From Phyllobates terribilis (Eukaryota), in contig NW_027362768.1 of the NCBI RefSeq assembly GCF_046119375.1, forward strand, positions 56,668,001-56,732,000: a stretch of 64,000 nt of DNA, read 5' to 3'. Position numbers and translations under genes: made by a program. The notes beneath the pieces were generated by a model. It did not search any database, had not been told where the DNA came from, and saw only the letters and a list, made by a program, of their open reading frames with translations. Of the stretch, positions 5,752-58,047 are shown one piece after another. The stretch's first letter is position 1; each line of letters begins with the position of its first letter.

Positions 5752-8700
5752 TTATGAGGATCCTCCGGATCCTCCAGGTCCAGGCCTATCCGGAAACCTC
5801 TTGTGGAAAGCTTTAACAAGCCTAGGAGCTGAGACATCATCCGTCCTTACCCAGGAGTGGTCTTCAGGACTGAAACCCTTCCAGGAGACAAGATACTGTA
5901 ATCTCCCTCTATGCCATCTAGAATTCAAGATACGAGAAATTTCATATTCGCCATCTTCCACCACAGGAGGAACTGTGACAGTGGCATCCCTATCTGACAC
6001 ATCAGCCTTTTTCAACAAGGAAACCTGAAACACAGTATTAATCTTCCAGGAAGTAGGGACATCCAACCTAACAGCAGATGGGTTAACAACCTGAAGCACC
6101 TTAAATGCAACCCACAAACTTAGGACCCAGTTTTTTAGAGGGAATCCTCAACCGCAGGTTCTTTGAGGACAATCAAACCATGTCACCCACAGTAAACAAA
6201 ACCTCCTTACGTTTCCTGTCAAAATACTTTTTGGACTTCTTGTTAGCCTCTTAAAGGTGGCAATGTACATTAGTCCAAACTCTCTCCAAATCACCGGAAA
6301 AATTCTTCTCCTCCGGCACTGCCGACCCCAATTTGTAGAACGAACCAAAAGACGGATGTCTCCCAGTACAACAAAAAAAAGGAGAACACCCAGCAGAGGA
6401 GGATATATGATTGTTAAGAGAAAATTCCGAAGGGAGGCAGAAACTCAGACCACACCTCTTGATTGTCCGCCACAAAACAACGCAAAAACTGTTCTACATC
6501 CTGGTTCTTTCTTTCAGTCTGTCCATTAGACTCAGGATGATACCCAGACGAAAATGACAAATGGACTCCCAACCTGTCACAAAAGGCACGCCAAAAGCGA
6601 GCCACAAACTGGGGTCCTCTATCAGAAAAAATATACGTGGGAACGCTATGAAGCTTGACAATCTCCTTAACAAACGCCTTAGCGAGTGTCTTGGCACAGG
6701 GCAACTTAATGAATGGAACCAAATGACACAACTTATTAAAACAGTCCACGACCACCCAGATGACAGTAAAACCCTCGGACACAGGAAGATCAGTAATAAT
6801 ATCCATTGTGAGATGCGTCCAAGGTGCACTAGGAACCTCCAGAGGGCAAAGCAACCCCGCAGCAGGAGTATGTGAAGCCTTTGACCTAGCACACACAGTA
6901 CATTGACACACCCACTTGATGACTTCTTTCTGCCATCCAGGCCACCAAAAACTGTGACTGATAAGTCTCTTAGTCTCAGAAATTCCTGGATGACCTGCCA
7001 ACTGAGACTCATGACACTCCACAAACAAATCTCTCCTAAATGTTCTAGGCACGAACAACCTCCCATGGGGAGTGTTAGATGGGGCATCATCTTGAGCTTT
7101 CAGAATCCCATCCTCCAAAACGGAGTCCAATGCCGCCACCACAACTGCTTTCAGTAAAATGCTCTCCTCCTCCTTGGCACCGACCGTAGGAGAGAAGCTG
7201 CGAGATAAAGCATCGACTTTAACATTCTTAGTACCAGGGATATAGGTAACAGGAAAATGAAACCGAGAAACAAAAAAGTGCCCACCTAGCTTGATGGGCA
7301 TTCAAGCGCTTGGCAGCATCCAAATAGATCAAATTCTTATGATCTGTGAAAACCTGAATAGGAAATCTAGCGATTTCCAAAAAATGACGCCAATGTTCAA
7401 ACGCGAGTTTAATAGCCAGCAACTCCCAATTCCCAACATCATAATTCAGTTCGGTTTCGGAAATTTTTTTTGAAAAGAAGGCACAAGGATGTGCTCCATC
7501 CCTGTTCTCCTGAGACAAAACTGCTCCGACCCCCACCAATGAAGCATCGACCTCAACCAAAAAAGGCTTGGTCTCATCAGGCTGCATAAGGAAAGGGGCA
7601 GAACTGAACCTCTCTTTGCGATACTTAAACGCTTCAATGGCCTCAGTAGTCCACTGGACCGTATTCGCACCTTTCCTGGTGAGATTGGTTAAAGGTTTAA
7701 CAATTACATAAAAATTCTTAATGAATTTCCTGTAATAATTGGCAAAACCCAAAAATCTCTGTAGAGATTTCAAACCAACAGGCCTAGGCCATTCCTGCAC
7801 AGCCTGAACCTTCACAGGGTCCATCTCAAAGCCCTCGCTGGAGACAATGTAGCCCAAAAAACTAATTTTCTGCACAGCAAACTCACATTTCTCCAGCTTA
7901 GCAAAGAGTGAATTATCACTCAATAACTGCAAAACTTCACGTACACTCTGCCAATGGGACTCTAGATCTGGTGAATAAATCAAAATGTCATCCAAATACA
8001 CAACCACATTCTTACCAATCAAAGGTCTCAGGATGTCATTAATAAGGTTCTGAAAAAGTGCAGGTGCATTGGTAAGACCAAAAGGCATCAGCAGATTCTC
8101 AAAATGACCTACCGGAGTTTTAAAAGAAGTTTTCCATTCATCACCCTCCTTCACTCATAACAAATTGTATGCCCCCCGGAGATCAATTTTAGAGAACCAC
8201 TTGGCCCCCACTAACTGGTTAAACAAGTCAGGAATTAACGGCAATGGGTAGGAATTGCGTATGGTAATCTTATTAATTTCACGAAAATCCAGACATGGAC
8301 GTAAACCGCCGCCCTTTTTTTTAACAAACAAAAATCCAACTGCCACAGGCGACTTAGAAGGTCTAATGTGACCAGCAGCCAGGCTAGTCTGTATGTATTC
8401 CTCCAAGGCCTTTCTTTCAGGGATAGTCAGATTAAACAAGCGACTCTTGGGAAGAGTAGCTCCCGGAACAAACTCAATGGCGCAATCATAATCCCTATGA
8501 GGAGGTAAAACTTGTGACTCCTCCTCCGAAAAAACCCTCCAAAAATCTTGAATAGGTACAGGTAATTCCCCTTTTTCCACAGCTGCAATGCGACTATTAC
8601 AACATTTATCATAGCACTTCGGACTCCAAGACTTAATCACATTAGTAGACCAGTCCAGTAAAGTTTTTAACCAAGGCAATCCTAGAACAACCGGAGAGTG

Positions 8701-9766
8701 TAAATTATCTAATACAAACAAGTCCAAAATTTCTTGGTGAACTCCATTGATAGTGAGGGGAAATGCAGCAACCTTGTGAGTAATATATTTCAAGGGAGTG
8801 TTATCAATTGCAATCACAGAAATAGGTGATGACAAAGGTTTGGATTTCAATTTAAGGTTTTCCAAGAACCCTTTATCAATCATATTAAGTGTTGAACCAC
8901 AATCAACAAATACCTGAAATTCAATCAAATATTCCTGCAAAGTAGTACTCCCAGAAAGAAATACGCCTGCAGAGTGTAAACAAGCAATACGGGCGTACCT
9001 GACCTTTTTTTTTCTTTATTTAAACGAAGCACACAATCCTTAATCAAATGGTCAGCTTTACCACAATAAAGACACAATCCCTCAGCAAACCTCCGGTCTC
9101 TTTCCTGAGAGCAGAGTGACATCGCCCCAACCTCCATCGTTCTTTGCCGTCTGAGCAGATTTTCTGGGGACTAGGACCTGACATTACAGGAGTTTTTACC
9201 TCATTCAGCCTGAACCTTAGCCTCCTGTCCACACGAACAGCTAATTGCATGGCATCCTGCAGAGTCTCAGGTGCAGGGAATGCAATTAGCAGATCCTTAA
9301 CCCTTTCACTCAGACCAGCAAGAAATAAACATTTCAGAGCAGGATCATTCCATAAGACTTCTGAAGCCCATCTTCTGAAGTGTGTGCAATAATTTTCAAC
9401 ATCACCTGACCCCTGATTCAAACGCCTGAGTTCTGCCTCAGCAGATGAGATTCTATCAGGATCGTCATATAATAGACCCATAGCAGAAAAAAATTCTTCT
9501 ACAGACCTTAAGCATGGATCATTAGGTTGGAGAGAAAAGGCCCACCCCTGTGGTTCATTGCGCAAAAGTGACATAATAAAACCAATGCGCTGTGATTCAT
9601 TCCCAGAGGACCTTGGTCTCAAACAAAAATATAACAAACAAGCATTTTTAAAGGAAAAAAAATCTTGCTGTTTACCATAAAAAACATCAGGCAGTCCTAC
9701 CTTGGGTTCCACAAAATGCGCTCCAGAACAGCCACTCACGTATTGCTGTAGATCGGCCACCTCCAC
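5752..9766 (-). pseudogene. gag-pol of Gypsy element 1 (fragmented)
   Basis: ORFs 9044-9766 (gag), 8925-9137 (CLYCGKADHLIKDC), 8155-8940 (protease/RT start), 7228-8154 (RT/RNase H), 6414-7301 (integrase) and 5752-6117 (chromodomain), in canonical order but different frames. Confidence 0.93.
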
Positions 9767-13213: not shown

Positions 13214-16200
13214 TATATATCCATCTGAACTAACAGTCCGTCTGAGGACTAATCCAGCTGCATATATTCAGTGGTATTTGCAGGAGTTAGGCAGGCAGGG
13301 TATGTGGCAGACTGCAGTGCATATAGTGCAAGAGGGTCCATTGAACGTCCCTGCTGCTGTTCTTACAGATATTTGTAGACATAGCACCAGATATCAGGGG
13401 CCAGGGAAAAAAAAATGTGATCTTAATCCTGGTTATTTGCTTGAAAAGCAATCCAGAGTGCACCATTTTTCTGCTCCATTTGCTTGTTCTCACTGCAGAA
13501 TAAAGCCAGATCTGTTCCATATTTCAGCAATAAAAATCCAGAAATTTAAACTGAATGTGGAAAATATTGACCTCCTTTTCAATTCTGTTGCAGTGTCTCG
13601 GTCAAGCTATTCATACTAGGTGTCTGTGAAGAATAGTATTAGTAAATTACAGGCCTTCTATTTAAAACCGTGGTTCTCTGTCAGACATATCACCTATAAG
13701 AGTGTTCCAAAATCAGACATTTCTTTCATTTTCATTCTGTTGCAGTGTGTCAGTCAAGCTGTTCACACTAGGTGTCTGTGAAGGATAGTATTAACAAATT
13801 ACAGGCCTGCTATTTAAAATTGTGGTTCTCTGTCAGACGTATCACATATAACTGCGTTCCAAAATCAGCCATTTCTCGTGAACTTGGAAAATACTGTCCT
13901 CCATTAAAAATGGACAAGGTGCGTGGCAAGGGACAGGGAAGTGGACGTGATGGTGTTGGTGCATGCAAAGGCCGAGGACGTGGCCGTGGGCAAGCTGAAA
14001 TTGTGCCACAACAAACACCCACATCTTGTCGCTCGACCTTCCTGCCCCAATTAATAAGGGGCCGCAGAACCCCACTATTGAACAGAGAGCAGTATCAAAA
14101 GGTTATTGGTTGGATAGCAGATAATGCTTCCAGTCATTTAGCCACCACCACCACACCACCCTGTCTTCCACACGGTCAAGTCTCAGTAGCCGTGAGTCTG
14201 GACTGCATATTCCTCACACTGATTCTCCTTCCTCTAACCATGCCGAGTGCCCGGAGACAACTAATCCCACACTTGGACACTCCGAAGAGCTGTTCACTTT
14301 TCCATTTTTAGATTCGGGCCTCTCGCCCGGCCAGCTTCAAGCGAGTCAAGAGGAGATGCCCAAATATTGGAGCAGTCACGATCACACGAAGGCGACGGTG
14401 GGAAACTGCAATTACTGTCGCAAGAGGTGAATGATAATGATGATGAGACAAAATTGCCAGAAAGTCAGGAGGAAGACCAGGGTGCAGAAGTGGAAGACGA
14501 GGTGGTGGATGATATAGTAACTGACCCAACCTGGTAGGGGGACATACAGAGTGAGAACAGCAGCACACAAGGGGAGGGAGGCGTAGCACTACAACAGGCA
14601 GGAAGAATCAGTGTGGTGGCCGCAGACACAAGGCCGTAAAGCGTTCCTCATAACGCCAAAACAACGGAAGTTGCCAGCACAACTGTTAGGTCTTCCCTAA
14701 TCTGGTAAATTTTTTAAAGACTCTGCAGATAACCCCAAAATGGCCATTTGCACCACCTGCCAGGCCAGCATCAGCAGGGGTAGCAAAACTAGCAGGCTGA
14801 CCACAACCAGCATGATCAGGCACATGGCAGCAAAATACCTAAGTGGACAGAACCCCAGGGTCCAGAACAGAGTGACACCACTGCTTATTCCACTGTTGTG
14901 CGTGCACGCCATTCCCCTGTCCATGGCGCATGCCAAGATACCTCCTGCCCTTCACGTGTCAGTGCTAGTTGAGAATGTACAACATCAGCAAGCACGTGCA
15001 CGTCCTTGTTCCAGCGCAGCGTTCAGTTGTCCCTACTCCAGTCCTTGGAATGCAAGCACAAATATGCAGCCAACTCCCCACAGGCCACACTACTAAATTC
15101 ACAAATTTTGAGAATGCTTGTGCTCGAAATTTGCCTTTTAGGCTCGTGGAGATGGAATCTTTCCGCAACCTGATGGTGGCGGCCGTCCCTCGGTATTCGT
15201 TCCCCAGCCACCACTATTTCTCCTGGTGTGCCATCCCTGCATTACAAGAGCACGTGTCCCACAACATTAGACGTGCCCTCAACAACGCAGTTAGTGGGAA
15301 AGTCTAGAGATGAGCGTTGTTCTACTCGAACTGTTCGCCAATCTCAAATTCGAGCTGTTTTGGGCGGTGTTCGAGCCGGTCGGCGAACACGAACAATTTG
15401 AGAAAAATTCGGCTGTTCGAGGTTATGTTCGATAACTGTTCGTGCACCAAAATCATAACTGGATTTTTTCTCAGTAATGATGAAAATTAATGTTAATACG
15501 CAGTTTGAGTGTACAGCGGGGTGGGGGCAGGGGCAGGGGATGGATCTCTGCAGGAACAATGAAGATCTCCATTTTTTTTTCTCTTTCCCGCATTTGCAGT
15601 GGGGAGGTGCAATCTGTCAGCCTATCAGCAGCGCACACACGGAGCGAAGTGCTTTTTTTCACACAAGCAAGGGCATGTGTGATTGGCAGTGTATGTCACA
15701 TGTCCTTGCCCTATAAGACCAAGCCATTTTCCCCGTCGCCACCATTTTCTCACTGCTGCAGCTGCGTGTTAGACGGCACCGCTGTTGCTGTGTGCGCTAT
15801 ACCTTGTTAATTTCAAGCCAATTTTCGCACAAATATACAGATAGCTTGGGAGTAGGGAATAGTTGTGATTGCAGTCCTTTTAAGGACTAGGTTACAGCAT
15901 TTCCTACGACTTTTATCAGGCAGGTCTGTGCTCTTAAATAGATAGATTGTGGGAGTAAAGACTAATTGTAATTGGAGTCCTTTTCAGGACTAGGTTACAT
16001 CAGTTCCTATCAGTTTTTGCCAGGCAGGTCTGTGCCAGTGCTGTGCAAGTTTTTTTCACAGCATTTGGCTGAATCTAGCAAAGCTAATCCTTTTTGGCCT
16101 ATTGCAGAGTGTGTTAGTCAGTGGAGTAGCCTATCTGTGTTGCAAGATATACCACCTGTGTATAGAATACCAATTTTTTTACTGCACCTAGTGAAGTAAA

Positions 16201-16221
16201 ATCTTTTGGGCATAGCATCAT

Positions 16222-17827
16222 TCTATTAGTCCATCTATACTGACCTCCATCAGGTTGCAAACTGAATATAATTTTTTTCTGCATCTAGCTCTGAAAAAAT
16301 ATTTGGGCTTCTAGCAGTGTGTGGGACTTGGTCTATTAGTCCATCTATACTGACCTCCATCAGGTTGCAAATTAAAAATAATTTTTTTCTTCATTTATCT
16401 CTGAAAAAATATTTGGGCTTCTAGCAGTGTGTGGGACTTGTTCTATTAGTCCTTCTATACTGACCTCCAGCAGGTTGCAAATTGAATATAATTTTTTTCT
16501 GCATCTAGCTCTGAAAAAATATTTGGGCTTCTAGCGGTGTGTGGGACTTGGTCTATTAGTCCATCTATACTGACCTCCATCAGGTTGCAAATTAAAAATA
16601 ATTTTTTTCTGCATCTAGCTCTGAAAAAATATTTGGGCTTCTAGCAGTGTGTGGGACTTGGTCTATTAGTCCATCTATACTGACCTCCATCAGGTTGCAA
16701 ATTAAAAATAATTTTTTTCTTCATTTATCTCTGAAAAAATATTTGGGCTTCTAGCAGTGTGTGGGACTTGTTCTATTAGTCCTTCTATACTGACGTCCAG
16801 CAGGTTGCAAATTGAATATAATTTTTTTCTGCATCTAGCTCTGAAAAAATATTTGGGCTTCTAGCGGTGTGTGGGACTTGGTCTATTAGTCCATCTATAC
16901 TGACCTCCATCAGGTTGCAAATTAAAAATAATTTTTTTCTGCATCTAGCTCTGAAAAAATATTTGGGCTTCTAGCAGTGTGTGGGACTTGGTCTATTAGT
17001 CCATCTATACTGACCTCCATCAGGTTGCAAATTAAAAATAATTTTTTTCTGCATCTAGCTCTGAAAAAATATTTGGGCTTCTAGCAGTGTGTGGGACTTG
17101 GTCTATTAGTCCATCTATACTGACCTCCATCAGGTTGCAAATTAAAAATAATTTTTTTCTTCATTTAGCTCTGAAAAAATATTTGGGCTTCTAGCAGTGT
17201 GTGGGACTTGTTCTATTAGTCCTTCTATACTGACCTCCAGCAGGTTGCAAATTGAATATAATTTTTTTCTGCATCTAGCTCTGAAAAAATATTTGGGCTT
17301 CTAGCGGTGTGTGGGACTTGGTCTATTAGTCCATCTATACTGACCTCCATCAGGTTGCAAATTAAAAATAATTTTTTTCTGCATCTAGCTCTGAAAAAAT
17401 ATTTGGGCTTCTAGCGGTGTGTGGGACTTGGTCTATTAGTCCATCTATACTGACCTCCATCAGGTTGCAAATTAAAAATAATTTTTTTCTGCATCTAGCT
17501 CTGAAAAAATATTTGGGCTTCTAGCGGTGTGTGGGACTTGGTCTATTAGTCCATCTATACTGACCTCCATCAGGTTGCAAATTAAAAATAATTTTTTTCT
17601 GCATCTAGCTCTGAAAAAATATTTGGGCTTCTAGCAGTGTGTGGGACTTGGTCTATTAGTCCATCTATACTGACCTCCATCAGGTTGCAAATTGAATAAA
17701 AAAATTTTCTGCATCTAGCTCTGAAAAAATATTTGGGCTTCTAGCGGTGTGTGGGACTTGGTCTATTAGTCCATCTATACTGACCTCCATCAGGTTGCAA
17801 ATTAAAAATAATTTTTTTCTGCATCTA
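16222..17827. repeat. Tandem array of a 110-bp unit, ~14.5 copies
   Basis: CCATCTATAC (or CCTTCTATAC) recurs every 110 bp from 16231 through 17771. Confidence 0.97.
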
Positions 17828-17943
17828 ACCCAGCCAATAGTTTTGGCCTAATACCACAGTTTGGCCACTCAGCTCTGCTCGGTTACCATCCATTGTTTTT
17901 TTGTGCAAACAACTCCAGAGTTGTGAATTAGTTAACCACCAAA

Positions 17944-20900
17944 ATGAGTGGAAAAAGGCCTGCTGCTGGTGGAAAGGGGAATAGGCGTGTTGGGAAGGGG
18001 AAAAAAGGTTGTGTCCGTGGGGTAGGTGCAGAAGAAAGACCATCTTCCAGCCAAACTAAAATGTCTACTTCTTTTAGCGGACAATGTGATAAGATCCCTT
18101 TCTTACGGCCACGCCAATCGCTACAAATTCCAGATGAGGCACAAAAACAGCAGGTGCTTCAACGGATATCAAGTGCTCCTTTAAGTGGGCTCTCCTCCAC
18201 ATCAACTTCAACATCACAAATACTCCAGTCCTCAAAGGTGTCACCCAAATCGCACTTGCTTCCTCACAGCTCCCAAATCTCCAGCTGCCCGTCTGAGTAT
18301 GAGGTAGAACAGATGGTTGAGTCTGCAGAGCTGTTTACTCATACTATAGCCTGGGAATCAGAGGTAGACTCCAGCGCTTCTGTGAATCCAGACGAGGAAA
18401 TGATCTGCACTGATGCCCAGAATCTTTATGAGTCGGATCCAGGACCAGACGCAGAAGGTTCTGACCATAATGTAGACCCTCATTCCCAAACTGTAACTCC
18501 TGTTGGTGGAGACAATGAGGAAGACGATGATAAGACTCAAATACCTGATTGGAGCGACAACTTTAGTTTTTTGTCAGGGCAGGAACAGGTTGGCTCTGAG
18601 GACGACGGGTGTGATAACGCACAGGGTGATGATGATGAGGTCGGAGATCCCACTTACTGTCAACCCACAGTCAGCCAAGAGATGAGGTCAGCAGAGGAGG
18701 TGGAGGAAGATGCTAGTGACGACGAGGTCAGGTTGCGCCTTCCTGGACAGAGACGTAGTACTGGAAGCACGTCAACAACTGCATCCTCAAACACAACTCT
18801 GCCTCTCACCACAAGTCGTGGTGGCTCTTCAGGTCGCATGGGTGCTAAGCCTTGCATAGCCTGGTCATTTTTTCAGATCGATAAAGATGACCCAACTCGT
18901 GTTATCTGTAACATTTGTCAGCAAAAGCTAAGTAGAGGCCAAAAAATACATAGTTTGAGTACTTCATGCATGAACCGGCACATGGACATGAAGCATAAGT
19001 TGCAGTGGGAAGCTCAGTGTGCTACAATGCGGTCTAGCCGGCCGGGCCAACCACCGTCTGCCATATCTTGTGCATCCGCGGCCTCTTCATCCTCTGTGAC
19101 TGGGGGGACAGCAGTCACACCTGTTTTGGGGCGCAGACCTGCCACCTCTTTACCCGCAACAGCCAGCGTGATTGGCAGGTCATCATTTTCTTTGGAGGTG
19201 GTAACACCAGCTGGTCTTGAGCGCTGTCCGACATCGATAGCACCACCTTTGGATCAAGGCAACCTAACATGTCCGCCTGCATCTTCCTCACAGACCGGCA
19301 GTTTGCCGGGGACACCCTTATCAACCCCGTCTAAGCACAATAGCCAGCCCTCGGTCCCTCAGATGTGGACAAGTAAAAGACCATTTCCTCCTAGCCATGA
19401 GAAAGCTAAGAGGTTGAATTTCACCATCTGCAAGCTCTTGGCTACAGAAATGCTGCCTTTCCGCCTGGTGGACACAGAGGATTTTCGAGACCTTATGTCC
19501 GTCGCAGTGCCCCAGTACCAGATGCCCAGTCGGCACTACTTCTCAAAGAAAGGTGTGCCTGCGCTCCACCAGCATGTCGCACACAACATCACCGCTTCTT
19601 TGAGAAACTCTGTGTGTGACAGGGTGCATTTCACCACAGACACTTGGACGAGTAGGCATGGACAGGGGCGTTACATGTCGCTGACTGGGCACTGGGTAAC
19701 TATGGTGACAGCAGGACAAGGGGCTGCTGTCCAAGTCTTGCCGTCCCCACGAGTTGTGCGTCAATCCTCTTTATGTCATTTTTCCTCCACTGCTTCTGCC
19801 TCCTCAACCTCCTCTCGGTCTTCCACCTGCACCCAAAGCCTGTCTGGTCATGCCACAAGCTTTCTAACTGCGCAGAAGGGATCCTGCACACCTCCTTACT
19901 ATGCTGGCAGTAGGGCTCAACGTCATCAGGCGGTTTTTACATTGAAATGTCTGGGAAATGTGAGTCACACAGCTGAGGAGTTGTGGTCAGCTCTGGAGAA
20001 CCAATTTCATGAATGGTTGTCTCCACTGGACCTGAAACCAGGGAAGGCCGTGTGCGACAATGCTGCAAACCTGGGTGCGGCCCTTCGCCGGGGCAATGTC
20101 ACACACGTGCCTTGTATGGCTCACGTGTTGAACCTGGTTGTCCAGCAATTTTTAGCCCACTATCCCAGACTAGATGGCCTTCTGCAGAGGGCACGGTCGC
20201 TGTGTGCTCACTTCCGCCGTTCGCATCCCGCAGCTCAGCGACTTACATCTCTACAGAAGTCGTTGGGCCTGCCACTTCACCGGCTAAAATGTGATGTGCC
20301 TACCCGGTGGAATTCAGCTCTGCACATGTTGCAGCGACTGTGGCAGCACCGACAAGCCCTGGTGCAATACGTTCTGACGTATAGCCTGGGCCAACGAGAT
20401 TCAGAGGTGGGGCAAATCACGCTGGAGGAGTGGTCTCAGATCAGGGACCTATGCACCCTTCTGCACAGTTTTGAAATGGCGACGAAGATGTTTAGTTCTG
20501 ACGATGCCATTATCAGCATGACTATTCCGGTGATTTACATGCTGGAGCACATGTTAAACAGAATTCGGAGTCAGGTGGTGGCACAAGAGGAGGTGGAGGA
20601 AGTAGAGGAGGAGGAGTTGTATGCGGAAGGGCTAACATCTGCAAGGTCCAGACGGTCGGCAGCACCAGGGCGGCAGGCATGTGAGGGTGGGGGAGATGAT
20701 TTTACCAGGGCGCATGGTAGCAGCCAAACTAGTGAGGAAGGTGCAGGAGCCCAGGAAGAAGTGGAGGACGAACTGATGGAAGACTCATCAGATGAGGGAG
20801 ACCTTGATCACATTTCTGTTGTGCGAGGTTGGGGGGAGAGGACAGAGGAAGGAAGCATGATTGTTACCTCGCCACCAACACAACAGGGACTTGGTGCTCC

Positions 20901-21624
20901 TGGATGCGCAACACACATGAGTGCCTTCTTGCTGCACTACCTGCAACATGACCCTCGAATTGTGAGAATTAGAAATAATCCTGACTACTGGGTTGCCACA
21001 CTGTTAGATCCCTGGTACAAAAGTAAATTTGCAGAAATTATTCCTGCCATAGAAAGGGATGCACGCATGCAGGAGTATCAGCAGAGACTGTTGCAGAATC
21101 TTACATGTGCTTTTCCACAAAATACCAGTGGTGCACGTAGTGAATCTCACAGTTCCAACTTGCCAACCGTGGGACCGTCAAGTGTTCAGCACTCAAACCG
21201 TAACAGAACCACAGTATCTGCTGGTAACATCAATTTTGCGGAATCATTTCACCACTTTTTTAGCCCATCCTTTGCAAGGCCACAGGAGACAAGAAGTCTG
21301 ACACATAGTCAACGCCTAGAGACGATGGTACAGGAGTATCTCCAAGTAAACATTGAAGCCACGACTGTGTCACTGGACCCTTGCTCTTTTTGGGCTTCCA
21401 ATCTGGATAAATGGCCGGAGCTAGCCACTTACGCCTTGGAGATCTTGTCATGCCCCGCAGCCAGCGTTCTGTCTGAACGTGTGTTCAGCGCTGCTGGTGG
21501 TGTGCTGACAGATAAGCGCACGCGGCTCTCCACTGATAATGTAGACAGACTCACGTTCATAAAGATGAACAAATCATGGATCCGAAACGACTTTTCTACC
21601 CCTGTGTCATCCTGGGGAGAGTAA
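17944..21624 (+). CDS. hAT-superfamily transposase, 1226 aa, uninterrupted (BED zinc finger, DDE catalytic domain, C-terminal dimerization domain)
   Basis: BED finger WSFF...VICNICQQKL...MNRHMDMKH. Catalytic motifs FTTDTW, VCDNAAN, CMAH (CxxH), DVPTRWNS and SERVFSAAG. No stop or frameshift over 3681 bp. In-frame upstream TAG at 17929-17931. Confidence 0.96.
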   Translation: MSGKRPAAGGKGNRRVGKGKKGCVRGVGAEERPSSSQTKMSTSFSGQCDKIPFLRPRQSLQIPDEAQKQQVLQRISSAPLSGLSSTSTSTSQILQSSKVSPKSHLLPHSSQISSCPSEYEVEQMVESAELFTHTIAWESEVDSSASVNPDEEMICTDAQNLYESDPGPDAEGSDHNVDPHSQTVTPVGGDNEEDDDKTQIPDWSDNFSFLSGQEQVGSEDDGCDNAQGDDDEVGDPTYCQPTVSQEMRSAEEVEEDASDDEVRLRLPGQRRSTGSTSTTASSNTTLPLTTSRGGSSGRMGAKPCIAWSFFQIDKDDPTRVICNICQQKLSRGQKIHSLSTSCMNRHMDMKHKLQWEAQCATMRSSRPGQPPSAISCASAASSSSVTGGTAVTPVLGRRPATSLPATASVIGRSSFSLEVVTPAGLERCPTSIAPPLDQGNLTCPPASSSQTGSLPGTPLSTPSKHNSQPSVPQMWTSKRPFPPSHEKAKRLNFTICKLLATEMLPFRLVDTEDFRDLMSVAVPQYQMPSRHYFSKKGVPALHQHVAHNITASLRNSVCDRVHFTTDTWTSRHGQGRYMSLTGHWVTMVTAGQGAAVQVLPSPRVVRQSSLCHFSSTASASSTSSRSSTCTQSLSGHATSFLTAQKGSCTPPYYAGSRAQRHQAVFTLKCLGNVSHTAEELWSALENQFHEWLSPLDLKPGKAVCDNAANLGAALRRGNVTHVPCMAHVLNLVVQQFLAHYPRLDGLLQRARSLCAHFRRSHPAAQRLTSLQKSLGLPLHRLKCDVPTRWNSALHMLQRLWQHRQALVQYVLTYSLGQRDSEVGQITLEEWSQIRDLCTLLHSFEMATKMFSSDDAIISMTIPVIYMLEHMLNRIRSQVVAQEEVEEVEEEELYAEGLTSARSRRSAAPGRQACEGGGDDFTRAHGSSQTSEEGAGAQEEVEDELMEDSSDEGDLDHISVVRGWGERTEEGSMIVTSPPTQQGLGAPGCATHMSAFLLHYLQHDPRIVRIRNNPDYWVATLLDPWYKSKFAEIIPAIERDARMQEYQQRLLQNLTCAFPQNTSGARSESHSSNLPTVGPSSVQHSNRNRTTVSAGNINFAESFHHFFSPSFARPQETRSLTHSQRLETMVQEYLQVNIEATTVSLDPCSFWASNLDKWPELATYALEILSCPAASVLSERVFSAAGGVLTDKRTRLSTDNVDRLTFIKMNKSWIRNDFSTPVSSWGE

Positions 21625-21831
21625 AAGCTTGATGATTGGTTAAAATCACCCTACCAACCGTTTTAAGCTTTCAAATTACTAATCATGTTTATCTGTATCT
21701 TGACTGGAAAATAATTTGGGCTTTGTAGCAGTGTGCAGCACTGATCCTATTAGGCCATCTATAATAAGCTTCACCAGATTTAAAATTAAAAATAATTTTT
21801 AGCTGCATCTAGCCCGGAAAATAATTTTGGG

Positions 21832-23393
21832 GCTCCGAGATGCGCAAGACACATAAGTGCCTTCTTGCTGCACTACCTGCAGCATGACCCTCATATTGTC
21901 AGAATTCGAAGTAATCATGACTACTGGGTTGCCACACTCTTAGATCCCCCAAACTTTTCGATCAACCTTTTCATTTTAATAAAGACCAAAAAAATGGTCA
22001 TTTTTGAAATTATAAGCATTAGCAGGTTGTTAGAAACTGAAATCAAACAGTTTTCAACTCAAAACTTTATTCTAGGTGATGTTACATTTTCACATAGGAC
22101 CCCTTGTTCGAAAGGAGCTTCTGAACTCTCTCGTCCATTGAATTTGTCAGGTTTTGGATGGTTTCTGCTTCAATTGTTTTGCATGAGGACAGAATACCCT
22201 CCCAGAGCTGTTGCTTAGATGTGAACTGCCTCCCGCCATCATAGACACTCCTTTTAATGATGCTCCAAAGGTTCTGAATGGGGTAGAGGTCAGGGGAGCA
22301 TGGGGGTCACACCATAAGTTTGTCCCCTTTTATGCCCATATCAGCCAGAGATGCAGATGTTTTATGTGCAGCATGAGATGGTGCATTATCATGCAGAAAA
22401 ATGATCTTGCTGTGAAATACACGGTTCTTCTTCTTGAACCATGGCAGGAAGTGCTGTTTGAGAAAATCCACATACATTATGGAGTTCATCTTTAGCGCCT
22501 TCAGGGATCCTAAAGGGGCCGACAATCTCTCTCCCCATGATTCCAGCCCAAAACATTACTCCACCTCCTCCTTGTTGGCGCTGTAGCCATGTTTGCGTGG
22601 GGTGTCCATCAACCAGCCATCCTCCACTCCATTCATCTGGACCATCGAGCGCTGCACGGCACTCATCCGTGAACAAAACAGTTTTGAAATCAGTCTTCAT
22701 GTAATGTTTGGCCCACTGGAGCCGTTTCTGCTTGTGTGAAGTGGATAGAGGAGGTCGACAGGATGGCGTATGCACAGCTGCAAACCTCAGAAGGACCCTG
22801 CATCTTGTTGTTCGGGGGACGTTGGAGGCACAAGCAGCTTCAAAAACTTGTCTGCTGCTATGACGAGGCTTTTTTGCCGCTGCTCTTTCAACCTGACGTA
22901 ATTGCCTGTAGGAAAGAGTCCTCAATTTGCCCTTATCAGCACGCACACGTGTGTACTGTGAATCAGCTACATACTTCTTGATTGCCAAGACACTTCATCC
23001 TGATCATCGCACAATGTTGATTGTAGTCATGCCTTGACCTAAACACTCCACAATTTGTTGCTTCTCAGCAGCCGACACATCCTTTTTCTTTCCCATTTTG
23101 GCAGAAAATGTAGGCTGCTTAATAATGTGAGAGAGCCTTCTTAAGTAGTCTTGCCTTTCATTGGACACACCTGCCAAACTAATTAGCACAGGTGTCTGCA
23201 ATTGCTTACAGTGATATAAAGAGCCCTGACACACATCACCATCAATGAGTTTAACTGACAAACAAACAAATTCTTCCCTTATCACTCCTAAACACTTTTT
23301 GCATAATAATTTGGAACGCGGTGTACATGTGCTTTTCCACAAAACACCAGTGGTTCACATAGTGAATCTTACAGTTCTAACTTGCCAACCGTG
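21832..23393 (+). pseudogene. Diverged partial second copy of the hAT-A transposase 3' region, split by a Tc1
   Basis: 21832-21949 matches ~20897-21013 at about 90% (LLHYLQHDP.IVRIR.N.DYWVATLLDP). 23324-23393 matches ~21104-21173. Confidence 0.85.
21951..23323 (-). mobile_element. Decayed Tc1 transposon inside hAT element A
   Basis: 5' TIR reads CACCGCGTTCCAAATTATTATGCAAA on the minus strand, followed by TA at 23324-23325. ORFs 22389-22988 (VLFTDE...VMFWAGI) and 22307-22525 (FLHDNAPSH). 3' TIR missing. Confidence 0.9.
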
Positions 23394-23399
23394 GTCTGT

Positions 23400-23850
23400 A
23401 TGGAATTGTTCAATAAAGGGCCCAAAATTAAGATAACATAGATGGGAGAGGTCTCTATGAATAGGAATTCCTAAGTATTTGATACCCTGTGAGGGCCAGG
23501 CAAAGGGAAAGTTGGACTGGATGGAATCCTATATGGATTTAGGGAGGGAGACATCGAGGGCCTCAGACTTCGCTGCATTGATTTTAAAATTTTACCATGT
23601 AACAAAGTGATCTATTTCAGCCATAACAGCAGGGATGGATATATGTGATTGAGTGATATATACTAGGACATCATCAGCAAATAGAGAGCACTTGTACTCG
23701 GTGCCTCCCACCTCAATCCACCTAATATTGGGGTTATGGCGAATTGATGAGAGCAGGTGCTCCGTCACTAGGATGTATAAGAGAGGGGACAGAGGACATC
23801 CCTGCCTTGTCCCATTGGTGATTGTGAAAAGTGATGAAAATGTTCTGACG
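23400..23850 (-). mobile_element. LINE (L1-clade) reverse transcriptase fragment
   Basis: ORF 23592-23954 contains FTITNGTRQGCPLSPLL...SLFADDVLVY. Confidence 0.85.
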
Positions 23851-25056
23851 CACCCCCTGGGCCTTGGGACACCCGGAGCCGGACCCTTTTTGGTGGATGC
23901 TGGTGGTTGTAGTCTTTGTGGCGGCGATCCGGTTCCGTGGCTCAGGGCGGTCAAACCAGTGGCGGAACTATTTATGTGGTTTTGATGTTTAAATGTCCGA
24001 CTACGCCACCCGTGGATTGCGGTCAGAGTGAACCGCCGCTACAGGGCAGACCGCTAAGGCTGGTGTTGTGGGTGCAGCAGAGCGTAGCATAACTCCCCAC
24101 GGGAGGAGTATAGCCTCAGGGCAGTGTATGCGGAGGATGGGGGTGATGGTGCAGGGCAGCAGCAGTAACGACACGGAGTCAGTGATGCAGTTCAGGGCCT
24201 TTACTCACAGTTCTTATTATCCAGACCACGTCTGCAGGTAACGGCTGCCCACGTCGTACTGTGCTCACCAGGTGAGGGGCTCAGACAACTCCCAGATAAC
24301 TTTGGAGCGCTTCACAGGACCCCCTTTGTGTGTCCTTTGTCTGGCCTTTCTTACCAACACTTCTGTCCGGCTGCCTCGGGCCTCCTCTTGGTAAACTTGG
24401 CGCCAGTTTCCCTGACCCTATGTGGTGCCTTCCTAGCGGGTGGAGCAAGGGGCTGCGCCACATAAAATGTCAGAGCCTCCGGTTTCTAGCTGAGGGTCGT
24501 TTCCTGCCTCCACTAGTTCGGGGACCGGTCTCCCCCTTTGGCCTGACCCCTCCACGCAGGTGGATTCGGGCGTGCGGTGGCGACTCGCCCGTCCGCACCC
24601 CTGGGATCCCTTCATTCCTCGTTCCTGGAGCCTTCTCCGCTCCTCTTCCTTCCTTCTCCCTCTTGCAGGCCTGGGCCTCTGTTACTAGGCCTGCCTCCGG
24701 AGCAGAGCTCATGCAGAGCCCCTGCTCCCTGCCACTTCTGCTCAGACTTCTCTGCACTGAACTAAGATAGTGCCCACCTTTTATACTCCCTTCTCAATGC
24801 ACCCAGGAACTGCTTCCTCCCTGCTCCTGCACTGCAGGGTTCCCCTTCCTCAGTGTTCCCTCCCCCCACTCCAGCCAGGGACAGGGACTGTCGTGCCCAT
24901 CTCAGGGGCATATTGGTCGCCCTGCCCCACGGCAATGTGGTGTAATGCATGCAGGTGTCGGGTCCTGATCCACACTCCATCCTTATCTGAGAGTGAGATA
25001 TCACACCTCTGGGTGAGGTGCAATACGTCTGTAGCAACCGAGCCCTCGGTGCTACA
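23850..25056. mobile_element. GC-rich ~1.2-kb non-coding insertion, possibly a solo LTR
   Basis: Sharp GC shift that truncates the L1 fragment. Ends in the hairpin TGTAGCAACCGAGCCCTCGGTGCTACA. No convincing ORF; left boundary uncertain. Confidence 0.4.
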
Positions 25057-25322
25057 GTTCCATTTATCTTCAGCCTAGGTGACGTATTGTGATACAGGGC
25101 CGTGATTTTGGCTATAAAAGGGTCCCCTAGACCCCTACCCCAAGCTTTTTAAGAGAATCATATATGGCGTGCCAGGAGACTCTATGGAATGCTTTCTCAG
25201 CATCCAACGAGAGTATCTACTTACAAATTTTTAACTGCATCTAGCCCAGGAAATACTTTGTGCCTAGTAGCAGTGTCTGCTAGTCAGCGGATTATCCCGG
25301 CTGTTAAGCAAGCTACACCACC

Positions 25323-25597
25323 TGTAGTTTGGACACTTAATTTTTTCAAAGGAAATGCTTCGGGACCACAGGATACTTAGTGAAGAGCATCAGGAGGCAC
25401 CCCAAGGCATAGGGGCTGGGACTGGCACTAGGATGCCTTGCGGTGGACAGCCGAGCTCGATCCTTATAAAAGCTTTTTAACTGCAGCAGCTTTAGTGGAC
25501 GCTACTGGAGCTGGAATTACGCGGCTGCTGGCATGAGACTTGCCCTCCAATAGATCCTTGTAAATGGATTTAAAGTGTATTCATTCAAATTAGAGGG
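25323..25597 (-). pseudogene. 18S rRNA gene fragment (~275 bp, degenerate) inside hAT element A
   Basis: Minus strand reads CCCTCTAATTTGAATGAATACACTTTAAATCCATTTACAAGGATCTATTGGAGGGCAAGTCTCATGCCAGCAGCCGCGTAATTCCAGCTCCAGTAGCG...GCTGCAGTTAAAAAGCT...GGATCGAGCT...GTCCCAGCCCCT...GATGCTCTT...CCCGAAGCATTTCCTTTGAAAAAATTA. This is colinear with 18S across the universal GTGCCAGCAGCCGCGGTAA motif and the start of V4. Confidence 0.92.
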
Positions 25598-28122
25598 ACA
25601 ATTTAAATTAAAAAGCTTAGAGCTGCCTCCACCACAGGGGGGCTCTCTCGACCCACCAGCGTACAGGCACCAGTATTGGGAGAGGGGGGCTGGCCGTCAG
25701 GGTTCACCGCGGCTCTGGCACAAACCCGGCGACACGGAGGTGGCACGGGCAGGAGCGGACTGGCCGTCTCGGCTTCTCACTTTTTGGATTTTAGAAGGGC
25801 ATGACATGCCTATATCTGTGTCTCCCCCTCCTTTTACTCCTCCACCTCTTTTCTTTTCGCATGACTATATGTACTTGTCACTTTTCCATGTGTTAGTTGT
25901 GTCTTCTGAGCAGTTTGTCAGCTTTTGGACACCTTTGAAGGTGTTTTCTATGTGTTTCTATGTGTTTTTGTTTGCCTGCCATTGGTTTTAACGGTGTTCG
26001 AAGGTGTTCGACGAACAGTTCGGCGAACACACGGGTGTTCGACGAACCGAACCGAACTCGAACACTACGGGGGTGGCTCAACACTAGGAAAGTCCTCCTA
26101 ACCACGGACACATGGACAAGTATTTGTGGGCAGGGACGGTACATCTCGCTGACGGCACACTGGGTTAATATAGTGGAAGCAGGGACCCAGTCAGACCTTG
26201 GGACGGAACACGTCCTCACGACGCCGAGGAATTTCGAGCCCTGGGTCAATCAGGGTTGCCCCCACATTCTACAGCTCCTGCACCTCCTTCTCCTCTTCAG
26301 CCTCCATCTCCGAAATGACCACATCAGTCGCAAGCTGTAAGCACTGCAGCACTGCCTCGGCCAAGCGGCAACAAGCTGTGCTGAAGCTAATATGCTTAGG
26401 TAACAAACCGCACAATGCTGAAGAGTTGTGGACAGCTCTGAAAGAGCAGGCAGATCTGTGGTTGACACCGCTAAACATACAGCCAGGTATGGTCATGTGT
26501 GACAATGGCAGGAACCTGCTAGGGGCTCTGAGGTGAGCTCACACACGTACCATACTTGGCCCATGTGCTTAACCTCATGGTTTAGCGGTTTCTCAAAACC
26601 TACCCGAATCTGTTTGTCAAAGTACGCCGCCTGTGTGCCTATTTTGGAAAGTCAGCTACAGCTTGCGCCGCCCTTGCAGTGCTTCAGCAGCATTTGCAGC
26701 TTCCAGCTCACCAACTGTTCATGCTATGTTCCCACGCATTGGAACTCTACATTGCAGACGTTGGGAAGGAATTGTGAACAGAAGAGGGCAGTTGTTGACT
26801 ACCAGCATCAACAAGGCCGTCAGTATTCAGCTCAGACTCCACACCTAAAACCTCAGGGGTGGACACGGATGTCAGACATATGTACCATCCTCCAAAACTT
26901 TGAGGATTCCACCAAGATGGTGAGCGGCGATGACGCCATAATTAGCAGACCATCCCGCTTCTCTGTCTTCACAGTTAAAGAGGATGCATTGCAGGCGGAG
27001 TACGATGAGATGGAGCAAGGAACCGTACAGGGTGATTACACACAGTCCAGCCTCATCTCATCCCAACGTGCATTCGGTGACAATGAGGAAGAGGAGGAGG
27101 AGGAAGAACAGGAGCTAGTTTCCTGCACTATAGACGGTACTACCTGCACAACTGTCATACCGTTTGTTCAGCGTGGATGGCCTGAGGACAGGTAGGAGGA
27201 GGATGAGGAGGAGAACATGGTTAGTCATCCTTTTGGTGAGGATACAGAAGTCTTGCCTGTTAGCAGTCTAAGTTTGTTACGCTACCTTTCCCATGACCCT
27301 CACGTTGTCCAATTTTTTGGTGACAGTCATAACTGGTTAATGACACTTCTAGACCCACGCTACAAGGAGAACTTTCTGTCTCTTATTCCCTTGCAGGACA
27401 GGCCTAATAAAATGGGGCAGTACGGCCCTTGTTGCGGAATTATTTAAAAAAATTACCATCTTAAAACGCTGGCAGCAGAAGTCACAGTTCGTTGGACTAC
27501 CAAGTAGTACAGGCAAGAGAGACACAAATGCAATAAAGCAGAGGCACGGGAACACTGTCAAAGTTCTGGGACAGTTTTCTCAGATCCTCCCATCTCACAG
27601 GCCCTGAGGTGCGGGGTATTCTCCCAAGGAAGGAAAGTTTCGGAAGATGGCGAGGGAGTACCTTGCCGACTGTACCAATGTCCTCTGTGATTCCTCTGTA
27701 CCTTATAATTATTGGGTATCCAAGCTGAACACGTGGCATGAACTGGCTTTCTACACCTTGGAGGTCCTGGCTTGCCCTGCCGCTAGCGTTTTGTCAGAGC
27801 GGGTTTTTAGTGCCGCTTGTGGGATTATAACTGATAGGCGCATCCGCCTGTCAACTGAAAATGCTGACAGGCTGACTCTTATAAAAATGAACAAGGGCTG
27901 GACTGGGTCAGACTTCTCAACACCACCGAATGATAGTAGCATAACATAAACTCAAATACAGTGTCTTTTTTTTGGGAGGTCTAACTCTATTCCCATGCAC
28001 ATCTGTCTTCACACCCAGACATGGGTATACGCTTCCTGATTTTGTCTATTTGCTCTTGTCCTCATCCTTCTCCGCATCCTCATCCTCCACCACCATATGT
28101 ACCATATCAACATATATACGAC

Positions 28123-28880
28123 TCTTGCAAGGAGCATTGGAGTTCTTCCAATTTTTTGGCAGCCGTTGCTTCACTGCATAGGCAAACAGTATGGGAGACA
28201 TTTCCTAATAATGGGAGCATTTTTTCCAGGAGGCCCTCTGACCTCTACGTCTCTTGCAAGGGGCATTGGAGTTCTTCCAAATTTTTGGCAGCCGTTGCTT
28301 CACTGCATAGGCACACAGTATGAGAGACACACTTCCTAATAATGGGAGCAATTTTTCCAGGAGGCCCTCCGACTTCTACATCTATTGCAAGGGGCATTGG
28401 AGTTCCTCCAAATTTTTTGCAGCCGTTGCTTCACTGCATAGGCAAATAGTGTGGGAGACACACTTCCTAATAATGGGAACATTGTTTTCAGTAGGCCCTC
28501 TGACCTCTACGTCTCTTGCAAGGGGCATTGGAGTTCCTCCAAATTTTTGGCAGTCATTGCTTCACTGCATAAGCAAACAGTATGAGAGACACACTTCCTA
28601 ATAATGGGAGCATTTTTTTGCAGGAGGCCCTCTGAACTCTTCGTCTCTTGCAAGGGGCATTGGAGTTCCTCCAAATTTTTGGCAGCCGTTGCTTCACTGC
28701 ATAAGCAAACAGTATGAGAGACACACTTCCTAATAATGGGAGCATTTTTTTGCAGGAGGCCCTCTGAACTCTTCGTCTCTTGCAAGGGGCATTGGAGTTC
28801 CTCCAAATTTTTGGCAGCCGTTAGTCACTGCATACACAATAACAGTATAGGAGACCCACTCGTTAATAATGGGAACAACA
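28123..28880. repeat. Tandem array of a ~131-bp unit (~6 copies) downstream of the hAT-B transposase
   Basis: TCTTGCAAGGGGCATTGG-like anchor at 28123, 28252, 28383, 28514, 28646 and 28778. Confidence 0.93.
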
Positions 28881-29589
28881 AAGCATAGCCGACTGCTGGC
28901 CCTTTAAGAATAGTAAGGGCCGTCTGATGGCCCTATAAAAATAGTCTTTGTGACTTTCAGAGTCCATCCATCATAAATGAAACAGCATGTGTCTGATGAT
29001 GTGTCACACACCACATGGCCAGATAAGGTTGTAAAATGTTAAAATTACATTTCCCGGTGAATACATTTGTCTTGGTTGAAAGCAATGCAAAAGTGCAAAA
29101 ACGCATCAAAAACGCTACGTGTGAACATAGACCAAGGTGTGGAGGAGCATTTTTGTTTTTGTATATTTATTTTGCCTTGTATACATGTCGTTACCCTGGA
29201 AAGGATGTTCCTTAACATATTTCCCAGGAAAATCCATTTTGGTTTAGTTTTTGTATGTTTTATTGTGAGTCCATAAAAGTGGCATAATACCTCCAACAAT
29301 GTGGTTGACAGCAGGGAACTGGGAGTCAGAAATGCTTCCAGGGGTCTTCCCCATGCTGTTCCCATGTCATTTGAGCACTGTTCCCTTCGATTTGGGCAAT
29401 TTTTAGGCCCTCTGCAGACCCCCAGCGAGAGCCACCGGAAAAAAGCTCAAGTTTCCCATAGACTTGCATTGGGCTCGTTACTCGGTCCGAGCACTCGAGC
29501 ATTCCAATTTGCTCAACTCGAACAACGAGTACCCGAGCATTTTAGTGCTTGCTCATCACTATTTATTATACTTTGCTTTTATAGTGCCA

Positions 29590-43603: not shown

Positions 43604-46600
43604 TTCCAGTGCTGCCTATCAGCTTGTTTATCAGCTGTGCCCACCAGCCTGTCTATAGGCTGTGCCCGCATGCCTGTCTATCAGCTGTGACCACCTGTTT
43701 GTCTTTCAGTGCTGCCTACCTACCAGCCAAGCTCATCTGCCAGCCCATCTGCCATGCCTGTCTGCTTCGGCTCTCAGTCCCTTGGGAGTCGTCAGCTCTC
43801 ACATGAGGTAGGTCCCAGTGTGGCACCTGGTCCACCTTCCCAGTTCACGAAATAGACTAAGCCACTGTGTAACCAGGGTCGGTCCGGGTAGGCATTTAGT
43901 TACGCCCCTCTAGTCCTTCTTTGTACCATGGCACAGTGGTTCCACCACCGGACCTGTAATAGTTTGCACAGGCCATGGAATCTGGTGGCTTCCAGGCTCT
44001 CTCGCTTTCAGACCTGTGCCAAGAGGTCTCCCGCCAGAGATCTCAACAGGATACGATCCTGTCCTATCTGTGGACTGTTAACTCCCGCTTGGATGCACTG
44101 TCCACTCCAGCTGTTCCCTGCCTCTAACTAAGTGGCATCCGCTTCGGTGGCACCTCAGCCCAGTGGCGGTGTGGCACCCAGCTAAGGACCCCGACTATCT
44201 GCTCCACCACACTTTGGCGGTGATCCCGCTCTATGTCGGGGCTTCATCAACCAGTGCATGCTGCCCTTTGAGCTCCTGGCTCATTAGTTTGCTTCTGACT
44301 GGGCTAAAGTGGCATTTATCATGTCCCATTTCACCAGAGAAGCATTGCCGTGGCTCAATCCCCTATGGGAGAGAGGGGATCCCTGGTGTCTAACCTCCAG
44401 GCTTTTCTTGCGGCCTTCCGGGTTTTTGATGAGCCGGCCACACATCCTCGACTGCCTCCTCTCTTCTTCGTCTACGCCAAGGGAACCTCACAGTGGGCCA
44501 GTATGCTGTGTGTTTCTGTACCCTCACGTCTCAACAGGCCTGGAAAAATGAGGCCCTGGTGTCTACCTCTTGGGAGGGCCATTCTGTGCGGATCAAGGAC
44601 GAACCAGCTGGTCGTAACATACCCACCACTCTGGACGACCTGGTGTCTTTGGCCACACAGATGGACATCAGATTCCAGGAGCGTTCTAAGGAGGTGATCC
44701 ATGAGAGAAAATCTCTGTGCCTTGCACCAACCTTCCAAGGGCCAGTCTCTCTACAAGCCTCTGCCTCGGCATCCACCCCAGGAGCTATGCAGGTAGACCA
44801 GGTAAAGATGGTCAAGTCTCACTAGGATGTCCGCTGCGCCGAGGGAAGATATTTTTACTGTGGCAGCACGGAGCATTTAATTCACTCTTTTTTCAGAGAG
44901 ACCGGGAAACTCCAGTACCTAGGATCACTTGGAGAGGTCGTCCTTGGCAAAAAATTTTCCTCTCCATCCTTGACACTATCTGTATCGATAACCTGTGGTG
45001 AGATACATTTTTTCGAGACTGCCTATCTGGAGTCTGGTGCCGCTGGGAATCTCATCCAACAGGCCATTGAAGAGCAGTATCAGATCCCTATTCAACATCT
45101 TTTGGATCCATTAGCGGTTTCCTCCGTGGATGGGAGGCCCTTTTCAGAGTCCATCTTGTTCGTCACCGAGCCTGTAGTTCTTCAGATAAGAATGCTACAC
45201 TCGGAGAAAATATCCTTCTACATGCTGTCCGGCCTCTCTAACTCTTTACTGCTTGAACTGCCCTGACTTCAGACACACGAGCCGGTTTTGAATTGGAGTT
45301 CTGGAGAGGTGCTCCACTGGGGTCAATTAGTGTCACAAGACATGCTTGGTTTCAGTCCATCCTACTCGACCTCCGTCCACTCCAAGTAATATGCCTGGCT
45401 TGCCGGCACCCTACTGGTCATACGCTGACATCTTTGACAAGGAGGCGGCTGAGACACTACTACGTTATAGGCCCATCGACCTCAGACTGTCCCATCGACC
45501 TCATTTCTGGTGCTTCACCACCCCAAGGTCGAATTTACCCCCTGTCGTTGGCTGAGACCCGAGCCATGTCCGAATACATCAAAGAGAATCTTGCTAGGGG
45601 ATTTATCCAGAAATCCACCTCTCCGGCTGGAGCAGGATTCTTCTTTGTCAAGAAGAAGGATGGCTCTCTTCGCCCATGTATCGACTATAGGGGTCTAAAT
45701 CAGATAACTATCAAAAACAAGTATCCTCTGCCTCTCATTTCCAAGTTGTTTGATCGCCTCAAGGGCGCCAAGGTGTGTACTAAGCTCGATATCCATGGTG
45801 CATACAATCTGATCTGGATTTTTTTTTTCATGACATATTGGACTTCATGATAATGGTAAAAAAAAATTATATGACTTACATTTATTTGTGAAAAAATCTG
45901 AAAATTGTGAAAATTTTTACATTTTCAAACTTTTAATCTTTATGCTCTTAAATCAGAGAGTCATGTCACACAAAATAGTTCATAAATAACATTTACCACA
46001 TGCCAAATTTACATCAGCACAATTTTGGAAACAACATTTTTTTTGTTAGGAAGTTATAAGGATTAAAAGTTGACCAGCGATTTCTCATTTTTCCAACAAA
46101 CTTTACAAAACCATTTCTTTAGGGACCACATCACATTTGAAGTGACTTTAAGGGACCTTTATGACAGAAAATACCCAAAAGTGACACCATTCTAAAAACT
46201 GCATCCCTCTAGGTGCTCAAAACCACATTCAAGAAGTTTATTAACCCATTAGGTGCTTCACAAGAATTAATGGAATGTGGAAGGAAAAAATAAACATTTC
46301 ACTTTTTTTTCACAAAAATGTAACTTTAGACCCAATTTTTTTTACTTTCACAAGGGTAACAGGAGAAAATGGGTGACGAGTGGAAGACGGCATTCAACAC
46401 TCGGGATGGCCACTACAAGTACCGGGTGATGCCCTTCGGTCTCTGCAATGCACCAGCAGTCTTCCAAGAACTGGTGAATGACATCTTCCAAGATCTTCTA
46501 TACTCGTGCGTGGTAGTGTATCTGGACGATATCCTGGTGTTCTCTTCTGATCTACCCTCACATCGTAGAGACGTTCGACAGGTATTGCAGAGGCTTAAAA

Positions 46601-57960: not shown

Positions 57961-58047
57961 GGTTTTCCTCTTCCACGGTTCTAATCTACTTTTTATTACC
58001 CTTTTTCCATTGATAGTGCAAGTGTAAGCTATTTTACTTCCTTTACA

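Follow-up and report, generated by a model that had tools for sequence, protein, structure and literature searches.

A transposase-coding hAT element of Phyllobates terribilis with a foreign cargo: copy number, architectures and a probable stepwise history

A 64,000-nucleotide stretch of the Phyllobates terribilis genome (assembly GCF_046119375.1, contig NW_027362768.1, positions 56,668,001–56,732,000 of the forward strand; hereafter the window, whose numbering is used throughout) contains a hAT element in which young-looking ends and a young-looking transposase gene enclose old-looking debris of other transposons, and this raises the question of how the two came to be combined. An initial annotation, made from the sequence alone, proposed that the cargo was assembled earlier and that the whole 10.8 kb then transposed as one unit, with selection on the open reading frame (ORF) as the alternative. 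We consider it very likely that the element is a young member of a hAT family that encodes a transposase and has spread, at its full 11 kb, to at least 60,000 sites, its junk likely having been gained stepwise by the few founders of successive waves.

The element and its cargo

The element occupies 15305–26086 (10.8 kb) and is bracketed by an 8 bp target site duplication (TSD), GGAAAGTC, whose two copies at 15297–15304 and 26087–26094 are identical, as initially annotated. Terminal inverted repeats (TIRs) are present at both ends, although the match claimed for them is imperfect and the first 12 bases agree at 9. The CGAAC subterminal repeats are borne out by word counts, with 8 CGAAC/GTTCG words within 155 bp of the left terminus and 10 within 107 bp of the right, compared with 5 in the 10.5 kb between. 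The features, from left to right, are as follows.

15297–15304: left 8 bp TSD, same letters as 26087–26094
15305–15445, plus strand: left end, with a 12 bp imperfect TIR and CGAAC/GTTCG subterminal repeats
16222–17827, plus strand: 110 bp tandem array of 14.6 units
17944–21624, plus strand: hAT transposase ORF, 1226 aa (BED 306–352, D566, D705, C724xxH727, W789, E1178, dimerisation domain 1133–1207)
21666–21834, plus strand: diverged 110-bp-like units after the stop codon, ~75% identical to the 5' array
21827–21948, plus strand: cargo, transposase scrap A, 89% identical to 20891–21012
21951–23325, minus strand: cargo, dead Tc1 that retains one end, at a TA within the transposase scrap, and has lost the other
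23324–23394, plus strand: cargo, transposase scrap B, 93% identical to 21102–21172
23395–23845, minus strand: cargo, L1-type reverse-transcriptase piece, part 1
23846–25056, minus strand: cargo, solo long terminal repeat (LTR), TG...CA, 1.2 kb, with its own 4 bp TSD, inside the L1 piece
25057–25210, minus strand: cargo, L1 piece, part 2 (right limit approximate)
25226–25325, plus strand: 110-bp-like hAT sequence
25340–25618, minus strand: cargo, decayed 18S rRNA fragment (left limit approximate, taken from a longer match in an older copy)
25800–26086, plus strand: right end, with a conserved subterminal region, CGAAC repeats and a 12 bp TIR
26087–26094: right 8 bp TSD

The ORF that the initial annotation called flawless is indeed a single 1226 aa frame of 3.7 kb. 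Its predicted product contains zf-BED and hAT dimerisation domains and matches the Hermes transposase (E = 1.5e-18) in an alignment that covers the second Asp, CxxH, RW and Glu motifs and from which the position of D705 was counted; D566 is presumably the first catalytic Asp, assigned by motif. We found 42 homologues of the transposase, 40 of them strong matches at 29–50% identity, and all of the named ones are frog proteins. The catalytic and motif residues are retained in 76–79 of 78–79 copies of the element (E1178 in 71 of 71), and the window copy keeps all of its catalytic residues, with four amino-acid differences from the commonest codons of its clade. An ORF of at least 1220 aa is present in 9/20, 11/20 and 5/20 copies, depending on the sampling scheme. 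Every hAT feature tested was found, namely the 8 bp TSD, short TIRs, subterminal repeats and predicted BED, DDE and dimerisation domains, and within a very large hAT family the element is a young and unexceptional copy. The 110 bp array upstream of the ORF was absent from the initial annotation; its unit motif is counted 5–25 times across 20 other copies, and it is the main cause of length variation. The unit number varies about five-fold among copies that are otherwise 99% identical.

The cargo totals 3.8 kb and consists mostly of other transposons, the 18S piece alone being derived from a host gene. Each of its initially annotated components was recovered. The second transposase piece, put at ~90% identity, corresponds to scraps A and B; the dead Tc1 has minus-strand matches to HTH_Tnp_Tc3_2 and DDE_3, both weak and below the Pfam curated cut-off; the L1 scrap matches RVT_1 (E = 1e-10); the LTR-like block is the solo LTR; and the 18S fragment has an Rfam core match at 25499–25618 (E = 3.6e-15). 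Parts 1 and 2 of the L1 piece are frame-continuous in copies that lack the LTR.

Copy number and co-mobility

Exact matches to short diagnostic sequences were counted across the 10.57-Gb assembly, where reversed-pattern controls gave zero. The left end (first 27 bases) occurs 49,858 times, the right end (last 30 bases) 62,391 times, and the purely internal junction between scrap B and L1 60,836 times. There are 15,425 matches to the Tc1/scrap B junction, the remaining copies carrying different alleles, and 30,606 to the LTR-filled junction, a count that is likewise allele-limited. When the listed places are paired over the first 26 Mb of C1, the copy number comes to 75,000–104,000 from left ends and 75,000–83,000 from right ends. 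We estimate the family size at 60,000–85,000 copies, at least 60,000, which at 10.5 kb per copy would amount to 6.0% (60,836 copies) to 8.4% (85,000) of the assembly.

DNA searches with the right 1.1 kb, with 21500–23900 and with the ORF core each gave 39 other top matches at 99–100% identity. Twenty of the 39 right-end matches were fetched, and 16 have the full cargo while four have a 2.2 kb deletion; all 20 of the 39 ORF matches that were fetched extend through the cargo to the same right end, three with the 2.2 kb deletion. Among the first 100 right ends on C1, 74 pair with the scrap B/L1 junction within 3.2 kb. Twenty left ends on C1 were also picked against the claim, as having no partner in the list of youngest junctions; 15 of these run into the cargo, and five are interrupted earlier by other insertions. 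No cargo-free 3' end was seen among these 20 picks or in any sampled copy, none of the 20 is a derivative of the size of a miniature inverted-repeat transposable element, and near-full-length copies predominate in the samples. No cargo-free sister family came to light in a search for one.

Both ends are visible in 28 copies (median length 10.2 kb), and their TSDs agree at 8/8 positions in 26, at 7/8 in one and at 2/8 in one interrupted copy, with 27 distinct TSDs among the 28. The ends, transposase and cargo thus travel together between distinct 8 bp TSDs, and foreign sequence between the TIRs has moved as a multi-copy unit. The initial annotation had named the internal junctions as the place to look; because they recur in many copies, joined to the same ends but flanked by different TSDs, accumulation after insertion is refuted. 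Two raw RNA runs labelled organism B contributed 1 and 0 reads to the element and were given no weight as to expression, since the host may be absent from them; contigs from two runs labelled organisms B and C match 30/30 bins collinearly, but at a low depth that would suit a related species and trace host DNA alike, and they were set aside.

A 91%-identical 'sister' beside one fetched locus (L060) was considered as a cargo-free relative and rejected, as it turned out to be junk within a further composite. A second composite bounded by the same pair of ends was also encountered (L119 with L143 and L144, G000:C1:210993434-211016984; also L111-L124). It spans 17.1 kb between matching 8 bp TSDs, lacks an intact transposase ORF and contains, among other junk, a nested hAT-like end and an inverted, LTR-interrupted transposase copy (91–94% identical to the window); an internal piece of it has its top 40 matches at 99–100% identity.

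Successive waves and the origin of the cargo

Among 19 copies that were picked by their junction and have no left-end match, two lack the LTR exactly, having a single 4-mer and an L1 frame that is open across the site. This empty site has 3,843 exact matches, and all 14 of the copies fetched are exactly without the LTR. Two of the 14 depart further, with a different 2.2 kb middle and a longer L1 piece, followed by the 18S piece and an unchanged right end ('type X'). Type X is itself multi-copy, with its top 40 matches at 98–100% identity; the architecture is common to 10/10 fetched copies, nine of which extend to the 18S and right-end region, and the TSD is 8/8 in the three checked. Three architectures therefore co-exist: type X, copies with the scrap A–Tc1–scrap B middle but no LTR, and, most abundant of the three, the LTR-bearing form. 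Type X appears from these comparisons to be the oldest.

The Tc1 piece decayed over the same series, its open stretch being 261–262 aa in 5/11 LTR-empty copies and in an early LTR-bearing copy (L098), and only 30 aa in 58/62 other copies. Trees of the ORF core and of Tc1, built from alignments projected onto the window with insertions dropped, are both ladder-like with the LTR-empty copies at the old end. Divergence from the commonest letters of each group falls from 1.2–2.3% in LTR-empty copies to 0.1–0.3% in the window's clade; at a substitution rate of 1–3 x 10^-9 per site per year, as reported in PMC12822217, the ages would be roughly 6–17 million years and 1–2 million years, respectively. 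The 2.2 kb deletion derivative arose in the youngest wave. Its single junction lies at a 16 bp microhomology, formed by the last 16 bp of scrap B, in 7/7 copies, and it has 2,746 exact matches. The initial proposal thus stands in that the whole unit is multi-copy with distinct TSDs, but not in having the cargo complete before the family spread, as the LTR-empty copies, the Tc1 frame and type X indicate that pieces were added and decayed between waves.

Selection bears on the contrast between ORF and cargo. Along the trunk, from LTR-empty copies to the youngest group, the ORF has accumulated 20 synonymous and 29 non-synonymous changes (pN/pS 0.44), compared with pN/pS of 0.78–1.10 for changes private to individual copies (Fisher P=0.018). 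The transposase thus appears, on this modest test, to be under purifying selection between waves, with copies drifting neutrally after insertion. Cargo change over the trunk interval is 1.8–3.1%, compared with pS of 2.3%, and divergence from type X is 8.5% for the 18S piece, 3.3% for the ORF core and 2.9% for the right subterminal region, suggesting that the cargo decays at or above the synonymous rate. Selection on the trunk transposase together with drift of the cargo would resolve the paradox of a young ORF with old contents; selection on the ORF, initially offered as an alternative, finds support in the trunk ratio but complements the carrier reading instead of competing with it. The autonomy proposed initially may hold for intact copies: the ORF is whole in the window, and selection on the trunk is indirect evidence for it.

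These observations suggest a history in which a BED/DDE transposase would read only the ends of the element, so that whatever lies between them rides free. Founders would be filtered for functional transposase and ends, and the ORF would be purified along the trunk because founder copies required a working transposase, while the intervening junk drifted and was recopied. Each wave would then have spread old-looking junk as thousands of young insertions. For the scrap–Tc1 block, a live copy may have inserted into or next to a dead relative already disrupted by Tc1; once deletions had occurred, it would have moved using that relative's right end.

We lean slightly towards this nested insertion as the source of the block. 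A lesser but substantial chance attaches to gap-filling or template switching from a dead relative, in which the block replaced the type X middle with no nested insertion, the route described for Pack-TIRs in PMC8277862. The block is a clean swap for a defined 2.2 kb segment plus ~170 bp of L1, its template belongs to the same family, which favours homology-guided repair, and a microhomology deletion does occur in the family; however, a dead type X copy that underwent simple deletions would be left with just this order, an ORF scrap and then an L1 tail pointing the same way, and self-insertion is frequent, family copies nested in copies of the same clan recurring among the fetched loci (L007, L060, L065, L083, L095, L096, L117, L153-L154 and X153).

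It is unlikely that the cargo is useful to the element and selected, for example through an antisense LTR or 3' junk that tunes expression or evades silencing. The excess of LTR-filled over LTR-empty sites (30,606 and 3,843 exact matches, both allele-limited) and the minority status of the shorter deletion derivative (2,746) fit such a role, but later waves may be bigger for unrelated reasons, the cargo diverges at least as fast as synonymous sites do, and the middle block was exchanged wholesale. Very improbable is a cargo fully assembled in one dead relic, the finished 10.8 kb unit then bursting once: the tail of L1, 18S and right end does predate every sampled wave, yet against a single burst stand earlier architectures that are multi-copy and have TSDs of their own, an LTR site that, when empty, is one clean 4-mer within an open L1 frame, and a Tc1 frame that broke down from wave to wave. 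Segmental duplication or assembly artefact is scarcely credible, as the few junction matches on C1 that recur at similar spacings are set against 27 distinct TSDs in 28 copies, similarity that stops at the TIR, equal strand counts and divergence graded by wave from 0.2 to 2%. Accumulation at this locus by nested insertion into a resident hAT can be dismissed, common as such insertions are in this genome, because the junctions occur 15,425 to 60,836 times and 39/39 other top matches cover 21500–23900 at 99–100%.

Several points weigh against the stepwise history that we prefer. Scrap A differs from the type X ORF at 4–9 positions and from carrier ORFs at 6–13, and, being barely closer to the former, argues only weakly for the capture route; the dead donor locus of the scrap–Tc1 block was not found. 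The trees are midpoint-rooted and carry no support values, and the selection test, modest at 49 changes and P=0.018, compares groups drawn from the same tree. Exact-match counts vary with allele, and the 6–8% share presumes near-full-length copies, yet several sampled copies are cut or interrupted. Many copies were chosen because they resemble the window, and sampling by position was confined to C1.

Relationship to other elements and neighbouring features

The element resembles hAT transposons such as Hermes, Tol2 and Ac and the 'ZBED4/6-like' transposases of frogs in its BED finger, its DDE core with CxxH and RW and its C-terminal dimerisation domain, and in its short imperfect TIRs, subterminal repeats and 8 bp TSD, features reported for Hermes in PMC10368747. 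It differs from these elements in its single 1226 aa ORF (the Hermes transposase has 612 aa), 10.8 kb length, internal 110 bp array and 3.8 kb of foreign junk. The movement of foreign sequence between TIRs as a unit with distinct TSDs is shared with the Pack-TIRs of animals and the Pack-MULEs and Pack-TYPE elements of plants, and hATs are the most common carrier among Pack-TIRs as reported in PMC8277862, which gives a median cargo of 224 bp and 4/370 multicopy. Here, in contrast, the cargo is 3.8 kb, mostly other transposons, in more than 60,000 copies. Pack-TYPE elements are described as non-autonomous, whereas this carrier encodes a transposase. The Pack-type behaviour proposed initially holds for the movement of foreign cargo between TIRs with distinct TSDs; the non-autonomy of Pack-TYPE elements is not shared, an ORF of at least 1220 aa being present in several copies per sample. 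The element is best regarded, from its sequence, as a Pack-like but transposase-coding hAT that is unusual in size and abundance.

Teratorn and the large Helitrons, as presented in PMC6431247, also have DNA transposon ends that carry a large extra load; this element lies below the 20 kb bar used there for giant cargo-bearing transposons, and its load is dead junk, not intact genes. Large low-divergence families or large hAT totals in frogs are given by class in PMC6278860, PMC12822217 and PMC11152451, including low-divergence families of 58,000–78,000 copies in Oophaga pumilio (PMC6278860) and a hAT total of 1.1 Gb in Ranitomeya imitator, with hAT associated with genome size (PMC12822217). As set out there, these are class counts from short reads or automatic libraries, without element anatomy, whereas here Tc1, L1, LTR and 18S pieces have multiplied as hAT passengers. 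A literature search by title found no account of this element, though the family may exist in Repbase or Dfam-type libraries as an automatic consensus.

One family with a readable staged history, estimated at 6–8% of a 10.6-Gb assembly, offers a handle on the growth of giant amphibian genomes. Its ~230 Mb of passenger DNA (3.8 kb x 60,836) is likely to be misread by class-level annotation as recent activity of Tc1, long interspersed nuclear elements and LTRs, and read-based rDNA counts could be skewed by the tens of thousands of 18S scraps. Transposition of Sleeping Beauty and piggyBac drops by 83–90% from 2.7 to 7.3 kb (reported in PMC3952818), and since DNA transposition usually declines with size, a successful natural 11 kb element is a candidate source of a size-tolerant transposase and a test case for cis-preference. 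We offer tentatively, as a doubtful but possible extension, that the family evolved in an L1-like manner, with a single ladder of founders, a transposase that prefers its own element and full-length, junk-laden 11 kb copies outcompeting short parasites; it would alone have built 0.6–0.9 Gb and made tens of thousands of false 'young' Tc1, L1, LTR and 18S copies.

The family that supplied the solo LTR (L087:3850-8800, L130:3608-8361) is ~5 kb long with two 1.2 kb LTRs and one ORF of 600–700 aa, for which Pfam gives only a cold-shock domain at the C terminus (E = 1e-8 to 6e-8). Its insertions break up many of the sampled hAT copies, and a literature search by title found nothing on this family.

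An older hAT was the target of the insertion, which falls within its reading frame; a paralogue of this hAT, at ~58047–60485 in the window, is uninterrupted.

13909–15304, plus strand: 5' part of the older, broken hAT, whose transposase frame is the insertion target of the element
26087–28095, plus strand: 3' part of the same older hAT, 79% identical to the uninterrupted paralogue at 58414–60485

This older family is represented in the window by two broken copies, at 13909–28900 and 53000–60500, that are ~79% alike and have their own 130–150 bp tandem arrays, the 5' copy being the host of the element. The window also contains frameshifted ORFs at 6414–9574 (minus strand) and 46369–48476 (plus strand), which, on their motifs, are probably LTR-retrotransposon pol-like.

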